DNA of 13,928 nucleotides, taken from IMG/VR virus record IMGVR_UViG_2648501669_000011; one strand, given 5' to 3'. Below are positions 1,365-13,928 of this stretch, in pieces. The notes under the pieces were generated by a model. That model saw only the letters and a program-made list of their open reading frames with translations. It made no database searches and was not told where the DNA came from. The position numbers and the translations under genes are program-made. This DNA is from a virus. Lineage: Duplodnaviria; Heunggongvirae; Uroviricota; Caudoviricetes. Numbering within the stretch: the stretch's first letter is position 1; each line of letters starts with the position of its first letter.

Positions 1365-1901
1365 ATGTCAAATGTGATTGGGATTGGTGATGCTTATCAC
1401 TGGAGTGTTTTTAAAATCGCCGAGGCTTTTGGGCTTCATCGGGACACAGTAAAAAAACGTCTCCTCGCCGCCAACACTCCTGTGGCTGCAACTGTCAAAG
1501 GAAACCCCGTTTATGCCCTGCAGCATGTCGGACCTGCCCTGTTTGGCCCGAAGCATGAGGTAGCAGACTCTGTTCATGATCCATCCCGGATGGAGCCGAA
1601 AGAGAGGAAGGACTGGTTCCAGTCTGAAAATGAAAGGATCAAGCTGGAAAAGGAACAGCGGAAACTCATCCCTGTCGATGAAGTGGTCATCGTCTATTCA
1701 TCTATGAGAAAGGCTGTCGTTCAGGTTCTGGAGACCATTCCGGATATTCTGGAACGCGATTGCGCCCTGACTCCTCAGGCTGTTGGTGTTGTACAGCAGG
1801 CCATTGATGACCTGCGATATACCCTTCAGGAAAAATCCTACGAGGCCTGTGCTGCTGAATTAATTTCTAATGAGGAAGGGGAGAGTCTCGAGGAGGAATA
1901 A
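1365..1901 (+). CDS. terminase small subunit (lambda Nu1-like, N-terminal helix-turn-helix)
   Basis: GGAG at 1355-1358 then ATG 1365. N-terminus MSNVIGIGDAYHWSVFKIAEAFGLHRDTVKKRLL has an HTH-like layout comparable to the lambda Nu1 N-terminus; acidic C-terminal tail (EEGESLEEE). Stop TAA overlaps the ATG of the large subunit (TAATG at 1899-1903). Confidence 0.75.
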   Translation: MSNVIGIGDAYHWSVFKIAEAFGLHRDTVKKRLLAANTPVAATVKGNPVYALQHVGPALFGPKHEVADSVHDPSRMEPKERKDWFQSENERIKLEKEQRKLIPVDEVVIVYSSMRKAVVQVLETIPDILERDCALTPQAVGVVQQAIDDLRYTLQEKSYEACAAELISNEEGESLEEE

Positions 1902-4015
1902 TGGGTTTTTCATCAGCCCGAAACCTTGGCAGGGACATATCTGCAGGATTTTCCCCACCACGTCGCATGCCGATTTCGGAGGCTGTTAAAAAATTCATGC
2001 GAGTTCCTAAGGGCGCGGGTAACTCAGTGCCATGGGATCCTGAACTGACGCCCTACATTATTGAACCTATGAACTGTTTGGCATCGCGTGAATACGATGC
2101 GGTGATTTTTGTTGGTCCTGCGCGAACAGGGAAGACCATCGGTCTGATCGATGGATGGGTTGTCTATACCATCGTCTGTGATCCTTCGGACATGCTCGTC
2201 GTGCAGATGACCGAAGATAAGGCTCGTGAGCATTCGAAAAAACGGCTCGACAGAACGTTCAGAAGCAGTACAGCGGTAAAGAAAAGAATGAGTCCACGTC
2301 GTAATGACAATAACGTCCATGATAAGACGTTCAAGGATGGCTCATTTCTTAAAATTGGTTGGCCCTCAGTCAATATTATGTCGTCGTCGGATTACCGGTT
2401 TGTTGCCTTAACCGATTACGACCGCTTTCCGGAGAATATCGACGGTGAAGGTGATGGTTTCTCCCTGGCTTCAAAACGTACCACCACATTTATGTCTGCA
2501 GGTATGACGCTGGTGGAGAGTTCCCCTGGACGTGAGATCACAAACAGCAAATGGCGCAGAACGTCACCGCATGAAGCCCCGCCCACCACGGGGATCCTTT
2601 CTCTATATAACCGTGGCGATCGTCGTCGCTGGTACTGGCCCTGCCCAGATTGTGGTGATTATTTCCAGCCATCTATGGAGGCTATGACGGGGTATCGTGA
2701 CAATCCTGATCCTGTAAAAGCCAGTGAAGCGGCTCATATATTATGCCCTCATTGTGGCAACCGAATCACCGCAGACATGAAACGTGAACTGAATGGTCGC
2801 GGCGTCTGGTTGCGTGAAGGTGAGCAGATTGACAGAGAAGGGAATGTTACCGGAACGCCACGTCATTCAAGGATAGCCAGCTTCTGGATGGAAGGCCCCG
2901 CTGCAGCCTATCAGACCTGGGCGCAACTGGTTTACAAACTACTGACTGCTGAGCAGGAATATGAAGCCACAGGCAGTGAGGAAACACTGAAGGCGGTGAT
3001 TAACACCGACTGGGGATTACCTTATTTGCCTCGTTCTGCCATGGAGTTGCGCAGTGCAGATGTCCTGATGCAGCGGGCTGAGGATTACGGTAAGCGCCTG
3101 GTACCGCCGAAAGTGCGTTTTCTTATTGCGGCTGTGGACGTGCAGGGCGGGAAGAACCGACGGTTTGTGGTGCAGATTATTGGCTATGGCGAGGATGGCG
3201 AACGCTGGCTGGTGGACCGTTATAACATCCGACAGTCATTGCGCTGCGATGAAAATGGCGAAGCATTACCTGTGCATCCCGGGGCTTATCCTGAAGACTG
3301 GCAGTTGCTGGTCACCGATGTACTGGAGAAAACGTATCCGCTCCAGTCCGATCCGGCCCGCAGAATGCCTGTACTGGCAATGGCGGTGGACAGTGGTGGT
3401 GAAGACGGGGTGACGGATAACGCCTATAAATTCTGGCGAAAATGTCGTCAGGATGGACTGGGGCGACGGGTTTTTCTGGTAAAGGGAGACAGCACGAAAC
3501 GCCAGAAAATTATCACCATCACACACCCGGATAATACCGGGCGAAGCGATCGCCGTGCGGATGCTCAGGGAAAGGTGCCGGTATATCTCCTGCAGACAGA
3601 CCTGCTGAAAGATCAACTAAGCAATAACCTGCAACGTGAAATGCCCGGACCGGGCTACATTCATTTTCCTGACTGGCTCGGGGAGTGGTTTTATGAAGAG
3701 TTGACCTATGAGGAACGCGGTGCTGACGGGAAATGGCGCAAGCCAGGAAAAGGGAATAACGAAGCATTTGACCTTTTTTGCTATGCCCATGCCGTCGCCA
3801 TTCTGCGTGGCTATGAAAAAATCCGTGACTGGAACAACCCTCCCCAGTGGGCAAGAGGGCAGAATGCTGACGCTGGGGCTTCAGCAGACGGACGTTCTTC
3901 CGGCACAGTGGACAAGAAAAACGTTGCCGGAAGAGATGAGCGGCAAAAAGCAGCATCGTCGGAAGCGTTATCCGGAAACTGGTTATCACTACCCCGAAAC
4001 GGAGGATGGTTGTGA
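1901..4015 (+). CDS. terminase large subunit (lambda gpA family)
   Basis: 704-aa ORF directly coupled to the small subunit, with GAGGAGGAA upstream. P-loop GPARTGKT (2114-2137) near residue 72-79, similar in position to the lambda gpA ATPase motif. CPDCG (2642-2656) and CPHCGN (2744-2761) form a CxxC-X29-CxxC zinc-ribbon-like motif. Size and order match gpA. Confidence 0.85.
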   Translation: MGFSSARNLGRDISAGFSPPRRMPISEAVKKFMRVPKGAGNSVPWDPELTPYIIEPMNCLASREYDAVIFVGPARTGKTIGLIDGWVVYTIVCDPSDMLVVQMTEDKAREHSKKRLDRTFRSSTAVKKRMSPRRNDNNVHDKTFKDGSFLKIGWPSVNIMSSSDYRFVALTDYDRFPENIDGEGDGFSLASKRTTTFMSAGMTLVESSPGREITNSKWRRTSPHEAPPTTGILSLYNRGDRRRWYWPCPDCGDYFQPSMEAMTGYRDNPDPVKASEAAHILCPHCGNRITADMKRELNGRGVWLREGEQIDREGNVTGTPRHSRIASFWMEGPAAAYQTWAQLVYKLLTAEQEYEATGSEETLKAVINTDWGLPYLPRSAMELRSADVLMQRAEDYGKRLVPPKVRFLIAAVDVQGGKNRRFVVQIIGYGEDGERWLVDRYNIRQSLRCDENGEALPVHPGAYPEDWQLLVTDVLEKTYPLQSDPARRMPVLAMAVDSGGEDGVTDNAYKFWRKCRQDGLGRRVFLVKGDSTKRQKIITITHPDNTGRSDRRADAQGKVPVYLLQTDLLKDQLSNNLQREMPGPGYIHFPDWLGEWFYEELTYEERGADGKWRKPGKGNNEAFDLFCYAHAVAILRGYEKIRDWNNPPQWARGQNADAGASADGRSSGTVDKKNVAGRDERQKAASSEALSGNWLSLPRNGGWL

Positions 4016-4230
4016 AAAAAGATGAGATTTTCCAGATGCTGGTTATCGTGCGTCAGGCATACAGGGATTCCCTGGATGGTAAAAGTGTGTCTTTTACCGG
4101 GGTGAATGGCAGGGCGATCACCAACCATGATCCTGTTGCATTGCGCAGGGAACTTGAATACTGGGAAAAACGCTGGGCGGCGGCCTGCCAGCCCACAAGG
4201 AAACCGTACAAACTCGCCCGTTTCTCCTGA
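4012..4230 (+). CDS. head-tail joining / head completion protein (lambda gpW-like)
   Basis: 72-aa ORF between terminase and portal, as lambda W. GGAGG at 4001-4005 sits 6 nt before GTG 4012 (ATG 4006 has no spacer). The start overlaps the terminase stop (GTGA). Similarity to gpW is by size, position and loose pattern only. Confidence 0.55.
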   Translation: MKKDEIFQMLVIVRQAYRDSLDGKSVSFTGVNGRAITNHDPVALRRELEYWEKRWAAACQPTRKPYKLARFS

Positions 4231-4238
4231 GGTTTTTT

Positions 4239-5750
4239 ATGGGTTTTTTTGATAAAGCACTTGGTGCAATTGCGCCAGGGTGGGCAGTTTCGCGCGCCAG
4301 AAACAAAATGCTGCTGAGAGCTTATGAGGCGGCGCAGCCTTCACGCCTGAATAAAGCCCGGCGTGAGAGTCGTTCTGCCGATACAGCAGTTTTTTCTGCC
4401 GGCACTTCGTTAAGGGAGCAGGCCAGGGCGCTGGATGAAGATCATGATATCGTGATTGGTCTGCTGGATAAGCTGGAAGAGCGGGTTATTGGTGCGCAGG
4501 GGATCCAGGTTGAACCACAACCACTGAGAAGCGATGGCACCCTGCATGAATTGCTGGCAGAGCAGATCTCGGCATTGTGGTCTGAATGGTCTGTTCGCCC
4601 TGAGGTCACGGGGATGTTCACTCGCCCGGAGGCCGAACGGATGGCATTGCGATCTGCTTTGCGTGATGGCGAGATGTTCGTACAACTGGTGCGTGGTCCT
4701 GTCGCCGGTCTGAATCATTCCACTGTGGTGCCATTATCACTGGAACTTCTCGAAGCAGATTTTGTTCCGGTCAGTCTGAACACGAACGCGGGTCAGCAAG
4801 TCCGCCAGGGCATTATTCTTAACAACTGGGGGCGGCCTGTAGGGTATCGGGTTTATAAATACCATCCTGCAAATATGCGTGGATTCAGCGCCGATCTCAA
4901 AACTGTTCACGCAGACAACATGCTTCATCTGGCGATGCGGAAACGGCTTCATCAGGTGAGAGGTGTCAGCCTGTTACATGGTGTGATTCGCCGGATTGCT
5001 GATCTGAAAGATTACGAAGAATCAGAGCGTGTGGCTGCCCGTATTGCTGCCGCGCTGGGTTTCTACATTAAGCGTGGTGATGCCGCCAGCTTTCCGACGG
5101 ATAACGACTGGACACCCACAGAACAAAAACCCCGGTACTTTGATATTTCGCCGGGCATGATTTTTGACGAACTGGCCCCCGGTGAAGATCTGGGGATGGT
5201 GGAGTCGAATCGTCCGAATGTTCATCTTTATGAATTCCGGAACGGACAGTTGCGTGCTGTGGCTGCCGGAACCCGTGGCAGTTATTCCAGTATTGCCCGT
5301 GACTATAACGGCTCCTACAGTTCGCAGCGTCAGGAGCTGGTGGAAGGTTACGAAGGCTACGGGGTTTTACAGCAGTGGTTTGTCGGTCAGTACAGCCGCC
5401 CGGTGTACCGGGCATGGCTGGAGCAGGCGATACCTTTTCTTGAAATTCCTCCTGATGTGGATATGTCCACGCTTTTCAATGCCACTTATCTTGGCCCGGT
5501 GATGCCGTGGATTGATCCGGTGAAGGAGGCTGCAGCATGGCGGGCCATTCTTCGCGGTGGTGCCGGGACGGAGGCCGAGTGGATACGTGCCCGTGGGCAG
5601 TCACCGCAGGAGGTCAAACGTCAGCGACTGCGTGAAACTGAATTTAACCGGGAAAACGGGCTGGTGTTCGATTCTGACGCCGCTAACGATAAAGGAGTGA
5701 TCCCTGATGCAGCAAATGATAAACCCGCGTCTTCGCGGGACGATGATTAA
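4239..5750 (+). CDS. portal protein (lambda gpB family)
   Basis: 503-aa ORF in the canonical position after terminase and W; GAGG 6 nt upstream of ATG 4239. Size and composition fit lambda-type portals; acidic C-terminus (SSRDDD). Confidence 0.8.
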   Translation: MGFFDKALGAIAPGWAVSRARNKMLLRAYEAAQPSRLNKARRESRSADTAVFSAGTSLREQARALDEDHDIVIGLLDKLEERVIGAQGIQVEPQPLRSDGTLHELLAEQISALWSEWSVRPEVTGMFTRPEAERMALRSALRDGEMFVQLVRGPVAGLNHSTVVPLSLELLEADFVPVSLNTNAGQQVRQGIILNNWGRPVGYRVYKYHPANMRGFSADLKTVHADNMLHLAMRKRLHQVRGVSLLHGVIRRIADLKDYEESERVAARIAAALGFYIKRGDAASFPTDNDWTPTEQKPRYFDISPGMIFDELAPGEDLGMVESNRPNVHLYEFRNGQLRAVAAGTRGSYSSIARDYNGSYSSQRQELVEGYEGYGVLQQWFVGQYSRPVYRAWLEQAIPFLEIPPDVDMSTLFNATYLGPVMPWIDPVKEAAAWRAILRGGAGTEAEWIRARGQSPQEVKRQRLRETEFNRENGLVFDSDAANDKGVIPDAANDKPASSRDDD

Positions 5751-7797
5751 TCCCCGCGCCAGCCTTGCGGGGGTGGATGCCGCTAATGGTCAGTGCTGGT
5801 ATGAAATCCGTGCACAGACTGCCGGGCGGGTGGAAATTTACCTCTATGACGTGATTGGCGGATGGGGCATCACCGCGCAGCAGTTTATTGCTGACTGTAA
5901 GGATGCGGGGGTGTTTGAGGCCAGCGCTATTGATCTGCATATCCACAGCCCGGGCGGTGATGTGATGCAGGGGTTTGCCATCTTTAACACGCTGTCACGG
6001 CTGAAAGCGAAGGTGGATATCTGGGTGGATGGTGTTGCAGCCAGCATGGCCTCCATGATTGTCTGCCTGCCTGGCGCCACAGTGCATATGCCTGAAAATT
6101 CCTGGCTGATGATACACAAGCCGTGGGGCGGGATCGCCGGTGATTCCGATGATATGCGTGATTATGCTGACTGGCTGGATCGCAACGAGGCGCTGATGCT
6201 GTCAGCCTACATGAATAAAACCGGACTCGGGCAGGAGGAGCTGGAAGCCATGCTGAAAGCAGAAACCTGGCTGAACGGTGCTGAAGCTGTGGAAAAAGGC
6301 TTCGCTGATACGCTTGAACCTGAATTACAGGCTGCGGCCTGTGTGAACCAAAATAAACTGAAGGATTACCATAATATGCCAGAACAGATTAACGCGCTTT
6401 TTGCTCCACGTGCAGAAACGACAAACGGACAGCCGCAGGAGCCGAAAGCAACCCCGCAAAATGCGCAACAGATCGCTGCTCAGCAGGCACCATCAACCGG
6501 AAATGTGGATATCAGCGCAATTGCTTCGCAGGTTCAGCAACAACTGATGGCAGCCAATGCGGAACGTGTGCAGGCTGTAACCGCAGTTTTTGCCTCTTTC
6601 CCGTCTTATGCCGCACTGAAAGCGGAGTGTCTGAACGACATGACCTGTACGGAAGCACAGGCCCGTGAAAAACTGTTGCAGGCGCTGGCAGCCGGAACGA
6701 CACCAAGTGCAGGCCCGGGCGCTGTTCATATTCATGCCGGGAACGGTAATCTGGTCGGCGATTCCATTCGTGCGGCTGTGATGGCACGCGCCGGATATGC
6801 CGAAGCAGAAAAAGATAATGCTTATAACGGTTTTACACTGCGCGAGCTGGCGCGTGCTTCGCTGGTTGATCGCGGTATCGGTATCTCCGGTCATTCCGCA
6901 CCGATGGCGATGGTGGGGCTGGCATTTACTCACAGCAGCAGCGATTTCGGCAATATCCTGATGGATGTGGCTCATAAAGCTGCGTTGCAGGGCTGGGATG
7001 ATGCCAGCGAAAATTTTGACAAATGGACCCGCAAGGGAACGCTGACTGATTTTAAAACCGCGCATCGTGTCGGGCTGGAAACTTTCCCGACGCTACGAAA
7101 AGTATTGCCGGGGGCTGAATATAAATATGTGACCCTGAAAGATCGTGGCGAACCGATTGCACTGGCGACTTATGGCGAATTGTTCAGCATTGATCGCCAG
7201 ACCATCATCAATGATGACCTGGATATGCTGACCCGTATTCCGATGGCAATGGGGGCGGCAGCGCGGACTACCGTGGGGGATCTGGTCTGGGCCGTGCTGA
7301 CCAGCAATCCGAAAATGTCGGATGGCAAACCGCTGTTCCATGCAGATCATGGCAACCTGGTGACTGCCGATTTGTCTATTGAGGGGCTGGATTCCGGGCG
7401 TAAAGCCATGCTGCTCCAGAAATCGGGTGACCGTCGCCTGAACATTCGTCCTGCTTTTATGTTGACGCCTGTTGCCATTGAGTCGCGTGCCAATCAGTTG
7501 ATTAAGTCTGCCAGCGTGCCTGGTGCAGATGCGAACAGCGGCATTATTAACCCGATTCAGAATTTTGCCACGGTTCTGTCAGAGGCCCGTCTTGATGACA
7601 GCAGCCCGACGGATTATTACCTGGTGGCAGCGCAGGGGCGTGACACGATTGAAGTGGCTTACCTCGACGGTATTGATACGCCGTATCTGGAGCAGCAACA
7701 GGGCTTTACGGTTGATGGTGCAGCATTCAAGGTGCGCATTGATGCCGGAGTGGCACCGCTTGACTGGCGTGGCATGGTCAAAGTGAAAAAACAATAA
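5707..7797 (+). CDS. three-part head gene: ClpP-like prohead protease, Gln/Ala-rich scaffold-like linker, C-terminal major capsid domain (Gifsy-2 type)
   Basis: 696-aa ORF. N-terminal third carries ClpP catalytic signatures: AASMAS (Ser codon 6043-6045, compare E. coli ClpP AASMG) and MIHKPWGG (His codon 6115-6117, compare MIHQPLGG). Residues about 224-330 are low-complexity Q/A/P-rich. No separate capsid gene of about 340 aa follows, so the C-terminal 370 aa is inferred to be the capsid protein. Start is ambiguous (ATG 5707 with GGAG at 5694-5697; in-frame ATGs at 5716 and 5743). Confidence 0.7.
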   Translation: MQQMINPRLRGTMINPRASLAGVDAANGQCWYEIRAQTAGRVEIYLYDVIGGWGITAQQFIADCKDAGVFEASAIDLHIHSPGGDVMQGFAIFNTLSRLKAKVDIWVDGVAASMASMIVCLPGATVHMPENSWLMIHKPWGGIAGDSDDMRDYADWLDRNEALMLSAYMNKTGLGQEELEAMLKAETWLNGAEAVEKGFADTLEPELQAAACVNQNKLKDYHNMPEQINALFAPRAETTNGQPQEPKATPQNAQQIAAQQAPSTGNVDISAIASQVQQQLMAANAERVQAVTAVFASFPSYAALKAECLNDMTCTEAQAREKLLQALAAGTTPSAGPGAVHIHAGNGNLVGDSIRAAVMARAGYAEAEKDNAYNGFTLRELARASLVDRGIGISGHSAPMAMVGLAFTHSSSDFGNILMDVAHKAALQGWDDASENFDKWTRKGTLTDFKTAHRVGLETFPTLRKVLPGAEYKYVTLKDRGEPIALATYGELFSIDRQTIINDDLDMLTRIPMAMGAAARTTVGDLVWAVLTSNPKMSDGKPLFHADHGNLVTADLSIEGLDSGRKAMLLQKSGDRRLNIRPAFMLTPVAIESRANQLIKSASVPGADANSGIINPIQNFATVLSEARLDDSSPTDYYLVAAQGRDTIEVAYLDGIDTPYLEQQQGFTVDGAAFKVRIDAGVAPLDWRGMVKVKKQ

Positions 7798-7800
7798 ATA

Positions 7801-7824
7801 ACCGCCGGACAGGGCGGTTTTTTT
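7801..7824 (+). terminator. intrinsic terminator / attenuator just downstream of the capsid gene
   Basis: ACCGCC (7801-7806) pairs with GGCGGT (7813-7818) around loop GGACAG, followed by a 7-T run (7818-7824), 4 nt after the TAA stop at 7795-7797. Confidence 0.6.
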
Positions 7825-7869
7825 ATGGCTGAAGCGGCGCACTTTGCGCCGCATTTACCGGAGAAAAAA

Positions 7870-8199
7870 ATGTCAAAAAATTTTGTTCAGGACGGAAAAA
7901 ACGTCGACTGGCTGAACGGGACCGGAAAGGCGGTGTCATCTGGCGATCTGGTTGTTCAGGATAATCTTGTTGGTGTTGCTCACGCTGATATTCCGGACGG
8001 GGATGTGGGCATTCTGCATACGGTGGGGGTTTTCTCTTTGCCTAAAGAGGCAGAGGCGCTGACGCAAGGCAGGCTGGTGTATTTCAAAGCGGATACGGCA
8101 ACACTGACTGCAACGAAATCAGGTAATACGCTGGTGGGAACAGTATGGGCATCGGCTGAAGCCGGAGATGCCTGTGTTTGTGTGCGTCTGGGGTACTGA
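7870..8199 (+). CDS. head decoration / capsid cement-like protein (DUF2190-like, about 109 aa)
   Basis: GGAG at 7860-7863 sits 6 nt before ATG 7870. Translation MSKNFVQDGKNVDW...SGDLVVQDNLVGVAHADIPDGDVGILHTVGVFSLPKEAEALTQGRLVYF...GNTLVGTVWA fits the pattern I recall for DUF2190 proteins that follow capsid genes. Size is close to lambda gpD. Confidence 0.6.
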   Translation: MSKNFVQDGKNVDWLNGTGKAVSSGDLVVQDNLVGVAHADIPDGDVGILHTVGVFSLPKEAEALTQGRLVYFKADTATLTATKSGNTLVGTVWASAEAGDACVCVRLGY

Positions 8200-9274: not shown

Positions 9275-9844
9275 ATGGCTGAACCCTTATGCATGGCATC
9301 CTGGCACGCTGCTGTGCTGGATACCCTGAAAAAACTTAAATGGATCAATGATGCGGACACCTATCCGGAACGGGTCACGCAACTGGTCACTCCGGCGGTG
9401 TTTCTGGCGGTGGATGGCTGGGATGCGAAAAGCAATGCAGACGGGCAGATGACGGTGGTGTTGTCTGCCGCGCTGTGGGTACTGGTTGACCGTGCCGGTG
9501 AGCCGGATAAAGAAAAAAAAGAAGAACGCAGGGCGATAAAGCCGGATATTTTTATCCGTTCGGCGGCCGCCGCGTTGTCGCACTGGCTCGACGGGCAGAC
9601 GTTCGGACTGGCAAATGTGGAGCCTGCCATTTTTATATCAGCGGACGCAGATGAAACCGATCCGCGTCTGGATGATTATCTGGTCTGGCAGATTTCATTT
9701 AACCAGACGGTGACGTTTGGTATGGATCCCTTTGCCACGGATAACCTGCCGTTACAGCGGGCCTGGCTGGGCGTGGCACCGGAGATCGGGCGACAGCATG
9801 TGGATGATTATCGGCTGATTTTTGAGGGAAAGCCACGTGAATGA
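9275..9844 (+). CDS. putative tail completion / neck protein (189 aa)
   Basis: GAGG at 9266-9269 sits 5 nt before ATG 9275. Translation begins MAEPLCMASWHAAVLDTLKKLKW. Stop TGA at 9842-9844 overlaps the next gene's start. Functional call is positional. Confidence 0.5.
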   Translation: MAEPLCMASWHAAVLDTLKKLKWINDADTYPERVTQLVTPAVFLAVDGWDAKSNADGQMTVVLSAALWVLVDRAGEPDKEKKEERRAIKPDIFIRSAAAALSHWLDGQTFGLANVEPAIFISADADETDPRLDDYLVWQISFNQTVTFGMDPFATDNLPLQRAWLGVAPEIGRQHVDDYRLIFEGKPRE

Positions 9845-10457
9845 GGTTCTGGGGGATTTACAGCGTCGCCTGGCAAATATGGTCCGGCGTGGGGTGATCC
9901 ACTCGGTGCGGCTGGACGGTGGTTTTCCGGAATGCCGCGTGGATCTGGGGGATATTGTGACCACCTGGCTGCCATTGTGTCAGGGTTTTGCCGGGAAAAA
10001 CCGGGCAGATTTTGAGCCGTTTGCTGTGGGCGATGCGGTCACGGTACTGTCAGAGGCCGGGGAGCTGAATAACGGTCGTGTTTTTCCCGGCTGGAATACC
10101 GGTGAGGCACCGGCTCCGCAGGGCAGCGACAGTGAGCACATCACCCGTTACGGAGATGGCACGGAAATTTGCTATAACCGGGAGACGCACTCACTGACCA
10201 TTATTCTGGCGGAAGGGGGCACCTATGCCATTACCGGGAATGGTGTGCTGGACGGAAACGTCATGATCTCAGAAGACCTGATCGTGAACGGACGCACGAT
10301 GGTTGAAGGTGAAGTGGTGGTGAAAAGTGATTTTTATGCAAAAGGCGAGGTGACGGATAAATCCGGTAGCATGAGCCGGATCCGGGAAACGTTTAATGGA
10401 CACGACCATCCCGGAGACAGTGGGGGAACCACGAAAGTACCGAATCAGAAAATGTGA
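9837..10457 (+). CDS. baseplate central spike / assembly protein (P2 gpV / Mu gp45 family-like)
   Basis: GAGG at 9825-9828 sits 8 nt before GTG 9837. N-terminus VNEVLGDLQRRLANMVRRGVIHSV, internal TTWLP and AVGDAVTVLSEAGELNNGRVFPGW, and C-terminal HDHPGDSGGTT (10401-10433, an HxH motif) match my recollection of gpV-type spikes. Same size class as P2 gpV. Confidence 0.6.
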   Translation: MNEVLGDLQRRLANMVRRGVIHSVRLDGGFPECRVDLGDIVTTWLPLCQGFAGKNRADFEPFAVGDAVTVLSEAGELNNGRVFPGWNTGEAPAPQGSDSEHITRYGDGTEICYNRETHSLTIILAEGGTYAITGNGVLDGNVMISEDLIVNGRTMVEGEVVVKSDFYAKGEVTDKSGSMSRIRETFNGHDHPGDSGGTTKVPNQKM

Positions 10458-10495
10458 CCTGCTGCGGCAGGTTTTTTTATGTCCGGAGAATGCAA

Positions 10496-11956
10496 ATGGG
10501 GCAATTACATGGTGTGGAAACCATCGAGCTGACAGCAGGCACGGTGGCAGTAACCACAATAGAGACAGCCATTATTGGTGTGGTGGGAACCGCGCCGCAG
10601 GCTGCCGGAGCTGTGGCAGCGACACTGACAGCGGGAACGCCGCTGCTGGATAACGAGCTGACCTTTACGGCAAAAGCGGGGGGACGGAGCGGAAATACCA
10701 TTACCGTTATTGCTGAACAGGCTGTCAAAGAAAAAAGTGCGGGTGCGGTTCCCACGTCAGCAAAATGGGAAAACGGAAGCCTGTTGATTTGGCTTGGATG
10801 CAGTGAAGAGGGGGCAGGCAATGCCACCGTCAGTGATGTTGTGACGGCGGTGAATGGTGTGGCGGGGGCCGGGGTGAGTGCCACCGGCAGCGGTGACGGT
10901 ATTGTGTCGCCGTTTTCCGGCACACTGAGTGGCGGTGAAGATGAACCGTTTCCGCTGAACACGCCAGTGGCGATGGCGGGAACAACGGCGCTTTCACGTC
11001 TGGGGATCACCGGAACACTGAAGCAGGCGCTGACGGAGATTAACGACCAGCGTAACGCGCTGTCGGTGATCGTCCGGGTGGAAGAAAAAACGAAGCCGGA
11101 AGAGCAGCGTGCTGCCATTCTTGCGGGGATCAGCATGCTGTCATCGGCAAAATCCGTCACCACGTATCAGCCACGTATTGTGATTGCACCAGGATTCAGT
11201 GAAGACGATGCGGTGGGTAAGGCACTGGAAACGGTGGCCGGAAAACTGCGTGCAGTGGCGTACGTGGATTGTGCTGCGGGCGCGACACTGCAGGATGTGG
11301 TGCAGCGTCGCCAGTCTTACGGTGCCAGGACTGAATTACTGCGCCCGCGTGTGCAGGTCAGTAATGCAGAGGGGCAACTGGTGTATCGCCCGTATTCGGC
11401 CTTTGCTGCCGGACTGCGTGCCCGTATTGACTATGAAAAAGGGTGGTGGTGGAGCAAATCAAACCAGGAGGTTTACAACATCCTCGGTGTTGAGCAGGTG
11501 GATGAATTTATCCTCGGTGAGCGCAACTGTGATGCCAACCTGCTTAATATGCAGAATGTCTCCACCCTGATTCGCCGCGCCGGATTTAAACACTGGGGAA
11601 ACCGTCTGTGCTCGTCCCATCCCCAGTGGCATTTCGAGTCCGTCCGCCGTACTGCGGATGTGATTGAAGACAGTATTCAGGAGGCGATGCTGGCGTATGT
11701 TGACCGCCCGCTCGATCGCCAGAATGCGGACGATATCATCGGCACCATTAATGCGTATATGCGCCGTCTGGTGGCAGAAGGGGCCATCTTCGGGGGGCGG
11801 GCATGGCTGGATCCGGAACTGAATACCGCCGAAACACTGGCAGCCGGGGAACTGTACATCAACTATGACTTCGGTCCCAAATCGCCGACGGAACTTATCA
11901 GCATGCGGGTGAGCGTCAACAACGAATACGGCATTAAGGAGATGACGGCAACATGA
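10496..11956 (+). CDS. contractile tail sheath protein (P2 FI / Mu L family)
   Basis: GGAG at 10485-10488 sits 7 nt before ATG 10496. N-terminus MGQLHGVETIELTAGTVAVTTIETAIIGVVGTAP and C-terminal motifs GWWWSK, TLIRRAGFKHWGNRLCS, AETLAAGELYINYDF parallel P2 FI as I recall it. 486 aa. Confidence 0.8.
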   Translation: MGQLHGVETIELTAGTVAVTTIETAIIGVVGTAPQAAGAVAATLTAGTPLLDNELTFTAKAGGRSGNTITVIAEQAVKEKSAGAVPTSAKWENGSLLIWLGCSEEGAGNATVSDVVTAVNGVAGAGVSATGSGDGIVSPFSGTLSGGEDEPFPLNTPVAMAGTTALSRLGITGTLKQALTEINDQRNALSVIVRVEEKTKPEEQRAAILAGISMLSSAKSVTTYQPRIVIAPGFSEDDAVGKALETVAGKLRAVAYVDCAAGATLQDVVQRRQSYGARTELLRPRVQVSNAEGQLVYRPYSAFAAGLRARIDYEKGWWWSKSNQEVYNILGVEQVDEFILGERNCDANLLNMQNVSTLIRRAGFKHWGNRLCSSHPQWHFESVRRTADVIEDSIQEAMLAYVDRPLDRQNADDIIGTINAYMRRLVAEGAIFGGRAWLDPELNTAETLAAGELYINYDFGPKSPTELISMRVSVNNEYGIKEMTAT

Positions 11957-12804: not shown

Positions 12805-12932
12805 GGTTTCTCGGGCGGCGGCTGCATTTTCCTCTTTCCGATTATCTGTCCATGCCGTTCAGTGTGTTTACGGCATTTTTACTGGATGAAGTGGAGGCAG
12901 TAAAACGTGGGAAGCGTAAGCCAGAATCTTAA
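12505..12932 (+). CDS. predicted -1 frameshift product of the tail chaperone (gpE+E'-like, about 142 aa)
   Basis: The -1 frame is open only from 12750 (TAA at 12747-12749) to TAA at 12930-12932. A T5 run (12752-12756) sits at the start of that window, where tRNA-Phe on TTT 12754-12756 can re-pair at 12753-12755. The extension overlaps the tape measure start by 26 nt. Confidence 0.5.
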
Positions 12933-13928
12933 GGCTACCGTGTCGTTCGGGGGCAAACTGGACAGTTCGTGGTGCCGTTCGGCGACGGATCTGCGAAAAA
13001 ATTTGCAGGATGTGGAGCAGCAGGCTGCGCGTTTACGTAAGGAGCAGGCAGAGCTGGCAGCAGAAATGAAGCGGGCGGCGCTGGCAGGGAAGCGTTTTAA
13101 GTCGATGGAGGATGAATACGCCCGGCTCACTGCTGAAATTAAGAAAGCGGATGCGGCCCAGAAAAAACTGAACCGGAGCCTTGAGCGTCGCGATCGGCTC
13201 GGACGTTTTATGGGCAAAGGAAAAAGCCTGCTTGCCGGAACCGGCAAATTTGCCTGGAATGCCGGTCTGGCGATGGGAGGCGGGGCCGTGACCACGGCGC
13301 TTGGTGCGCTGATTGCTCCGGCTGCCATGAATGCGCAGACGGCTGAAACAGCGGGTAAAGCGACTGCGTATGGCGTGGATACCCGCACGTACATGAACTG
13401 GGACGCCCTGGCAAAACAGTACGATATGACCGGCGATAATATCGGGGATCTGTTTGAGGAATACCTGCATAAGGCCGGGGAATATAAACAAAATGGCAAG
13501 CAGAGTTCGCTTTCTGACGCCTTTGAAACGCTGGGATTTGAGGAAGGCGATCTTGCCGGACTGAGTGATAAGGAACAGTTCGAAAAAATTATCGACAGGG
13601 CGCTGTCACTGAAGGATGAATCAAAGGCATCGTTTGCGCTGGATGCATTGTTTGGTGGTGAAGCCAGTAAACTGCTGATGCTGATCAAACGTTCTGGAAA
13701 AAGTTTTCAGGAACTGCTGGCTGAGCAGGATAAATATAACCTGGTGACAAAAGAGGGTGTGGCTGGCGCACTCGCCGGAAACAAGGCTGTTTCTGATTTG
13801 CAGCAGGTTTTTTCTTCTGCGGTTGCAGAAATTTCCGGACAACTGGGCGCAGAGCTGGCCCCCGCCATACAAGAGACAGCGGGTGACCTGGCAGAGTGGT
13901 TTAAAGGCGGAGGCATTAAAAAGGTTGT
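12907..13928 (+). CDS. tail tape measure protein, N-terminal part (3' end beyond window)
   Basis: GGAGG at 12892-12896 sits 10 nt before GTG 12907. The frame is open for more than 340 codons to the window end, alpha-helical, Ala/Lys/Glu-rich, in the position expected after the chaperone genes. Missing from the ORF track because no stop lies in the window. Confidence 0.75.
   Translation, partial: MGSVSQNLKATVSFGGKLDSSWCRSATDLRKNLQDVEQQAARLRKEQAELAAEMKRAALAGKRFKSMEDEYARLTAEIKKADAAQKKLNRSLERRDRLGRFMGKGKSLLAGTGKFAWNAGLAMGGGAVTTALGALIAPAAMNAQTAETAGKATAYGVDTRTYMNWDALAKQYDMTGDNIGDLFEEYLHKAGEYKQNGKQSSLSDAFETLGFEEGDLAGLSDKEQFEKIIDRALSLKDESKASFALDALFGGEASKLLMLIKRSGKSFQELLAEQDKYNLVTKEGVAGALAGNKAVSDLQQVFSSAVAEISGQLGAELAPAIQETAGDLAEWFKGGGIKKV

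Follow-up and report, generated by a model that had tools for sequence, protein, structure and literature searches.

A phage gene that encodes a maturation protease, a scaffold-like region and the major capsid protein (MCP) as one polypeptide raises a question of stoichiometry: with a protease on every capsid subunit, about 415 protease domains would be packed and then destroyed. A conserved internal start would solve this question simply. Such a gene, part of a prophage, lies on the + strand at 5707..7797 of a 13,928-nucleotide stretch of Caudoviricetes DNA (IMG/VR record IMGVR_UViG_2648501669_000011), the whole of which is called the window here. It is a single open reading frame (ORF) of 696 amino acids (75.0 kDa), translated without interruption from an ATG start to a TAA stop. 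The original prediction, made from the DNA letters alone, held that a nested scaffold-capsid product lacking the protease could be made from within this frame. Conservation of the internal ATG and of its Shine-Dalgarno (SD) sequence, their co-occurrence across relatives, a gene-wide minimum of synonymous change and an open mRNA structure at the site support this proposal, short of proof. We consider it likely that two nested proteins are made in frame from this gene, one of 75 kDa with protease, scaffold and capsid parts and one of 50.6 kDa with scaffold and capsid parts only.

Selection on an internal Shine-Dalgarno sequence, ATG and mRNA structure

The internal ribosome-binding region spans 6349..6365 (codons 215-220) and contains the SD core AAGGA at 6361-6365, followed after 10 nucleotides by the in-frame ATG of Met224 at 6376..6378, exactly as predicted. 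From this ATG, the proposed nested gene, scaffold-like region plus MCP, would run from 6376 to 7797 on the same strand and encode 473 amino acids (50.6 kDa), a reading that draws on the comparative evidence below. The full-length product has its own SD sequence, AAGGAG at 5691..5696, 10 nucleotides 5' of ATG 5707, with a calculated anti-SD duplex of -8.2 kcal/mol compared with -5.5 kcal/mol for the internal AAGGA. The order is reversed for folding of the -35 to +35 region, at -5.7 kcal/mol for ATG 6376 and -15.8 kcal/mol for ATG 5707. An SD-like 4-mer at -17 to -6 precedes 4 of the 24 in-frame ATGs (Met164, Met182, Met224, and Met312), against a background of 4.9% of codons. One sequence alone is thus within chance, and comparative data are therefore needed.

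We compared about 500 loci drawn from GTDB genomes, IMG/VR, phage records, and metagenome assemblies. Across 259 distinct nucleotide versions of the gene, the Met224 column holds Met in 250, Ile in seven, which all belong to one Aeromonas clade, and Ala and Pro in one each, and the following residue is Pro in 258. Met224 is retained down to about 41% identity, including in Gifsy-2, where the equivalent Met221 is preceded by an internal SD sequence (GTT GAG GAG TTT GAG CAT ATG). A sample of more distant ClpP-type fusions, with one representative per 50%-identity cluster, keeps the Pro in 106 of 115 cases but has Thr, Ala, Val, Ile, Glu, and others in the Met224 column, indicating that this Met is not structurally required. 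Among the 23 in-frame Met residues from residue 20 on, Met224 alone combines conservation (89% of clade representatives) with an SD-like motif upstream (91%).

The other three SD-preceded ATGs were rejected as alternative internal starts, as Met and motif are not conserved together at Met164, Met182, or Met312. At Met182, a strong SD-like AGGAGG lies in the 6241-6252 region, 11 nucleotides 5' of the ATG and inside the protease domain. It looks fortuitous, because the Met is kept in 54% and the motif in 35% of clade representatives.

The nucleotides upstream of Met224 are kept through a range of encoded residues. At -15 to -10, ATG-bearing lineages read AAG GAT/GAC (K-D), AAG GAG/GAA (K-E), CAG GAG (Q-E), CAG GAC (Q-D), GAG GAA/GAG (E-E), GAG GAT/GAC (E-D), or ACA GGA GAT (G-D), and two truncated contigs read CGG GAG (R-E) and CTG GAG (L-E). 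GGA at -13 to -11 is thereby kept through nine amino acid pairs, 10 to 11 nucleotides before the ATG, and is found in 29 of 31 ATG lineages. In a clade set of 60 representatives at less than 80% identity, an SD-like 4-mer is present in 30 of 31 representatives with ATG but in only 1 of 21 with another codon (Fisher P = 3e-12, a value that ignores phylogeny).

Synonymous changes, counted per codon by parsimony on an unweighted pair group (UPGMA) tree over 613 usable columns, have a median of 22 per codon. Codon 219, the AAG of the SD sequence, changed synonymously once and codon 217 three times, and these two are the only columns of the 613 with three or fewer such changes. The five-codon window with the fewest synonymous changes in the whole gene is 215-219. 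The lone change at codon 219 is AAG to AAA and falls in the Aeromonas clade.

The mRNA around the site is also unusually open. The 61-nucleotide window at ATG 6376 folds at -2.1 kcal/mol, compared with a gene mean of -15.3 kcal/mol, and is the least structured of 679 windows, with a local GC content of 0.36 versus 0.55 for the gene. Openness within about the top 1% is found as well in the Citrobacter, Hafnia, Pseudomonas, and Shiga-toxin (Stx)-phage clades and in four further distant ATG lineages, and in a Rhodobacter relative with Ala in the Met224 column the site is not among the least structured. ATG lineages have a median structure rank of 0.7%, compared with 14% for non-ATG lineages, and the native site is less structured than its synonymous recodings in 8 of 11 lineages. 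These results show that selection acts on the internal SD sequence, the ATG, and the open mRNA structure.

Alternatives to a second start

Several observations weigh against a second start. The internal SD sequence AAGGA is short and pairs less stably than the one at 5707, and its spacing is rather long. Amino acid composition alone accounts for the openness in 3 of 11 lineages. The lineages that carry the ATG may form one clade, so the association between ATG and SD sequence may rest on few independent events, and if the ATG was gained once, the evidence concerns maintenance of the start. The Aeromonas clade without the SD sequence, of which seven versions also lack the ATG, keeps the fused gene, and more distant fusions lack both. 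The fused architecture can therefore do without the nested start. Finally, all public records that we examined annotate a single coding sequence (CDS), as PGAP does in five listed Escherichia coli copies, and none annotates a nested start.

The last two points also favor the best-surviving alternative, a single polyprotein. Here all translation would begin at 5707, every subunit would carry a self-removing protease, Met224 and the charged residues would be kept for protein reasons, and the SD-like sequence would be a codon by-product. The pairs concerned, K, Q, or E followed by D or E, do tend naturally toward GGA-containing codons. However, the third base of codon 219 (G) is free to vary synonymously and has nonetheless changed less than at any other codon of the gene, and recoding with gene-typical codon usage keeps an SD-like motif in only 14 to 57% of trials outside the GC-rich Pseudomonas. 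Met224 itself is exchangeable for Ala, Val, Ile, or Thr in relatives, and the mRNA at the site is selectively unstructured in ATG lineages only. We regard a single polyprotein as an unlikely account of the gene.

The Aeromonas-type relatives (L006 and L262-L272) bear on this point in particular. Their SD sequence is absent, with AAC GAC or AAA GAC in its place. A K-D pair is encoded there as AAA GAC, and this sole clade to lose the SD sequence is also the sole one to lose the ATG (ATC or ATT in the seven Ile versions), which speaks against a single polyprotein. All Aeromonas-type relatives have an ATG 18 nucleotides upstream of the Met224 column, preceded by an invariant GAG, and their least-structured window is displaced upstream to match this ATG. 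Speculatively, the internal start may have moved to the upstream ATG in this clade.

A second alternative takes the SD-like sequence as a translational pause, or another RNA signal, at the domain boundary, for example letting the protease fold before the scaffold is made, with no initiation at all. The focus of nucleotide constraint on bases complementary to the anti-SD sequence would fit such a signal, as would its location in the predicted low-confidence linker between domains (residues 203-268). However, a pause needs neither an ATG at a fixed 10-nucleotide distance nor an unstructured flank, and it does not predict the joint loss of ATG and SD sequence. In addition, SD-driven pausing is itself disputed in E. 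coli. We judge this explanation improbable.

The last alternative attributes the conservation to recombination or to a module boundary shared by mosaic phages, or else to an overlapping gene, and has very little probability. The site does lie where the protease module meets the scaffold-capsid module, and phage head genes are mosaic. However, only about 6 to 10 nucleotides are constrained and these differ by clade (AAGGAT, CAGGAG, and GAGGAA), too short and too varied a stretch for homologous exchange. Constraint falls precisely on the bases that can pair with the 3' end of 16S rRNA, and no overlapping ORF of at least 60 amino acids exists on either strand across 6350-6380. No promoter-like site was found on the + strand near 6376 either, and the CATAAT at 6370-6375 is not conserved.

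Database proteins of 443 to 473 amino acids that begin with MP might be taken for stand-alone scaffold-capsid genes, and we rejected them as such because they result from contig-end truncations or a frameshift. In three of these loci (L422, L424, and L514), the contig ends just 5' of the Met224 equivalent. The fourth, L423 (GCA_000755365.1, BBMQ01000056.1, 2940-3010), is a frameshifted copy. Its frameshift, about 40 nucleotides before the internal ATG, leaves a protease ORF of 206 amino acids and a scaffold-capsid ORF of 443 amino acids that begins at the Met224 equivalent with AAGGA upstream. Because the surrounding region is fragmented, this copy is probably a decaying prophage or the product of sequencing errors. 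In a viable phage, such a split gene would amount to a natural experiment on the internal start.

The fused gene, its family and its relation to lambda and HK97

The fused protein has three parts, as the original prediction had proposed. The ClpP-related head maturation protease domain occupies 5833..6312 (residues 43-202) and is assigned by NF045542 (E 1e-57), by Pfam CLP_protease (PF00574, residues 73-202, E 4e-29), and by alignment to solved ClpP structures. The predicted Ser and His motifs, Ser113 in GVAASMAS and His137 in MIHKPW, align to the catalytic Ser and His of ClpP and are invariant across 35 relatives. Among solved structures searched by sequence, the only matches are ClpP chains, and the capsid and middle parts of the 696-residue protein have none.

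The scaffold-like middle region, at 6376..6726 (residues 224-340), consists of a variable stretch rich in Pro, Gln, and Ala, followed by predicted helices at residues 269-330 (nucleotides 6511-6696). Its length varies among relatives, and a Pfam search gave no family for it. A linker rich in Gln and Ala had been placed at about 6376-6690, and these two residues indeed make up 36% of residues 224-328 versus 19% of the whole protein. The C-terminal part, described earlier only as capsid-sized, is an MCP domain of the Mu gpT-related Phage_capsid_4 type at 6859..7785, with profile matches to PF25209 (residues 385-693, E 1e-51) and PF10124 (E 8e-8). An HK97 fold is predicted for this domain, and the AlphaFold2 model of the fused protein is poor (mean predicted local distance difference test [pLDDT] score of 41). 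Because the input alignment was shallow (35 sequences, 76 to 96% identical), we used this model for rough secondary structure only, that is, for the helices at 269-330 (pLDDT 62-75) and the low-confidence linker mentioned above.

The fused protease-scaffold-capsid gene itself is, by its sequence, an ordinary member of the already known Gifsy-2-type family. With NCBIfam NF045540 (scaf_prot_MCP1, ClpP-like prohead protease/major capsid protein fusion protein), which has a cutoff of 475, the protein scores 937.8 bits, and residues 42-694 align to positions 2-651 of the 652-position profile. It also matches phrog_133 over its full length (E 3e-290). The Gifsy-2 gene product (NC_010393, 22471-24561) is 51% identical over 674 amino acids. 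Gifsy-2 shares the order of ClpP-like protease, scaffold-like middle, and HK97-fold capsid in one ORF, as well as the lambda-type terminase and portal genes on the 5' side and a cement/decoration protein gene on the 3' side. These matches and flanks bear out the suggested likeness to the three-part arrangement of that phage, whose tripartite capsid gene was reportedly described by Effantin and colleagues in 2010 (Virology 402:355). Unlike the element studied here, Gifsy-2 has a lambda-like non-contractile tail.

Full-length relatives occur in 80 phage records, including mEp460, cdtI, VT1-Sakai, other Stx phages, and the Pseudomonas F10/MD8/JBD68/LES group. Copies with 78 to 98.6% nucleotide identity occur in six complete E. 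coli genomes, five of which are at 93% or more. The MD8 paper describes a three-in-one gene of this kind (PMC8508860), and in a 2025 paper (PMC12315714) Gifsy-2 is cited for a fusion of protease and coat genes. Searching the MD8 paper by terms gave no mention of a nested start, and a literature search on an internal start in this family returned nothing relevant, with the original Gifsy-2 description lying outside its reach.

More distant fusions differ in several respects. The C-terminal 455 residues match NF045541 (scaf_prot_MCP2) at 381 bits, below that family's cutoff of 525. Fusions of actinophages (for example, Arthrobacter clusters AM and AU; PMC5513430) likewise join a protease and a capsid protein in one gene. 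However, many of the NF045541 and actinophage fusions have an HK97-gp4-type protease with a "PAD" motif, and they have no Met in the equivalent column.

A nested start in a protease gene has a counterpart in lambda. The lambda C gene is a protease gene with an in-frame nested scaffold gene, Nu3 (Shaw and Murialdo 1980, cited in PMC8508860). In the lambda record, nu3 is annotated in frame inside C. A profile-profile comparison by hhalign pairs the two protease domains with a probability of 89% and ends at lambda residue 289, or about residue 208 in the protein studied here. Lambda Met309, which has AGGAGG upstream and which we take to be the accepted Nu3 start, lies 20 residues beyond this end, and Met224 lies 16 residues beyond it. 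The lambda RefSeq record that we used places the nu3 start at Met239 rather than Met309. The I/Z genes of phage Mu are a similar nested protease/scaffold case.

The analogy to C/Nu3 made in the original prediction therefore stands for the nesting position, an in-frame start just past a ClpP-clan protease that would give a protease-free product sharing the C-terminus. It does not stand for the product: the nested product of lambda is a scaffold only, with the capsid protein E encoded by a separate gene, whereas the nested ORF here takes in the capsid domain as well and ends only at 7797. The locus would thus work like C/Nu3 in a different arrangement, because its nested ORF continues through the capsid domain. 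The proteases differ in family, as lambda gpC is an S49-family peptidase and the protein studied here is ClpP/S14-like. With lambda gpC, hhalign aligns only the protease domains, and the best BLASTP match between the middle region and the Nu3 part of gpC is not significant (E 0.08). The conserved nested start can plausibly be seen as a variation on the principle of lambda C/Nu3.

The proposed 473-residue nested product would also resemble HK97 gp5 in layout, in that a putatively removable N-terminal domain of about 117 amino acids, predicted to be partly helical, would precede an HK97-fold capsid domain. The HK97 delta domain has 102 amino acids according to the MD8 paper (PMC8508860). The HK97 protease, gp4, belongs to a different protease family and is encoded by a separate upstream gene.

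Gene neighborhood and a two-product model

All the head genes around the fused gene lie on the + strand. The genes for the small terminase (TerS, 1335-1901), the large terminase (TerL, 1901-4015), and a gpW-like adaptor (4006-4230) are followed by a portal gene of the lambda gpB family at 4239..5750 (phrog_21, E 8e-116; PF05136 Phage_portal_2, E 5e-89), whose last 44 nucleotides are shared with the beginning of the fused gene. A perfect 6-bp GC hairpin, CCCGCG-TCTT-CGCGGG, lies in this overlap at 5724-5739, 17 nucleotides past ATG 5707, and may hold back synthesis of the full-length product. Within the first 17 codons, MINPR occurs twice, at residues 4-8 and 13-17, as part of a near-duplicate, and candidates for the full-length start are 5707, 5716, and 5743.

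On the 3' side, a terminator-like GC hairpin with a run of seven T residues (AACCGCC-GGACAG-GGCGGTT, 7800..7826, + strand) begins 3 nucleotides past the stop of the MCP gene. In phage mEp460, a rho-independent terminator is annotated at the equivalent place, between the fused gene and the cement gene. The hairpin could reduce downstream transcription or stabilize the 3' end of the capsid mRNA. The gene that follows, at 7870..8199, encodes a cement/decoration protein (PF09956 Phage_cement_2, E 8e-27; phrog_122), for which a Pfam search gave no lambda gpD family match. The longest ORF for this protein begins at ATG 7825, without an SD sequence and right behind the T-run. The true start is probably at 7870, because phrog_122 and the family profiles match the longer ORF only from residue 16 and a GGAG lies 7 nucleotides 5' of ATG 7870.

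Genes for head-closure and neck proteins, also on the + strand, come after the cement gene, and a tail sheath gene (phrog_23) is located at 10454-11956 on the same strand. A baseplate-like protein is encoded at 9822-10457. A head module of the Gifsy-2/lambda type (portal, fused capsid gene, and cement) is thus joined to a contractile-tail module, and since Gifsy-2 itself has a non-contractile tail, the element is a mosaic of head and tail types. Of two further ORFs, one of 148 amino acids upstream of the terminase genes (608-1054, + strand) matches only families of unknown function (phrog_1935), and one of 268 amino acids at the end of the tail-gene run (12879-13688, - strand) gave no match in a PHROG search. 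Among the other large ORFs of the window, none has a match to a capsid or scaffold family, so the original observation that the fused gene has no separate scaffold or capsid gene beside it is borne out for these 13.9 kb.

Within this setting, the two-product model would work as follows. Ribosomes starting at ATG 5707 would make the 75.0-kDa protease-scaffold-capsid protein, and ribosomes binding the conserved, unstructured AAGGA would start at ATG 6376 and make the 50.6-kDa scaffold-capsid protein without the protease. Both products may then co-assemble through their common scaffold and capsid parts, so that the protease would enter the procapsid on a subset of subunits. It would subsequently cut the subunits down to the capsid domain by removing their protease and scaffold parts, and the neighboring cement protein would stabilize the mature capsid. 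For a capsid gene of the Gifsy-2 type, the mature protein would be expected to measure about 35 to 40 kDa and to form a T=7 shell. In this model, we infer initiation at 6376, the ratio of the two products, their co-assembly, and the cleavage sites.

For the large gammaproteobacterial branch of the family, which includes Gifsy-2, the Stx-converting phages, and Pseudomonas F10/MD8, we lean slightly toward the view that the "tripartite capsid gene" consists of two genes, one nested in the other. The shorter product would be an HK97-like scaffold-capsid protein, and in the full-length protein the capsid and scaffold parts would serve as an address tag by which the protease reaches the procapsid. 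If this is true, the annotation of a common gene would change, since PGAP and the examined phage records list one CDS for a gene whose relatives include those of Gifsy-2 and Shiga-toxin phages. The strategies of lambda (C/Nu3) and HK97 (delta domain) would be combined in one reading frame, and the dosage of the protease would depend on how initiation is divided between two sites of a single mRNA.

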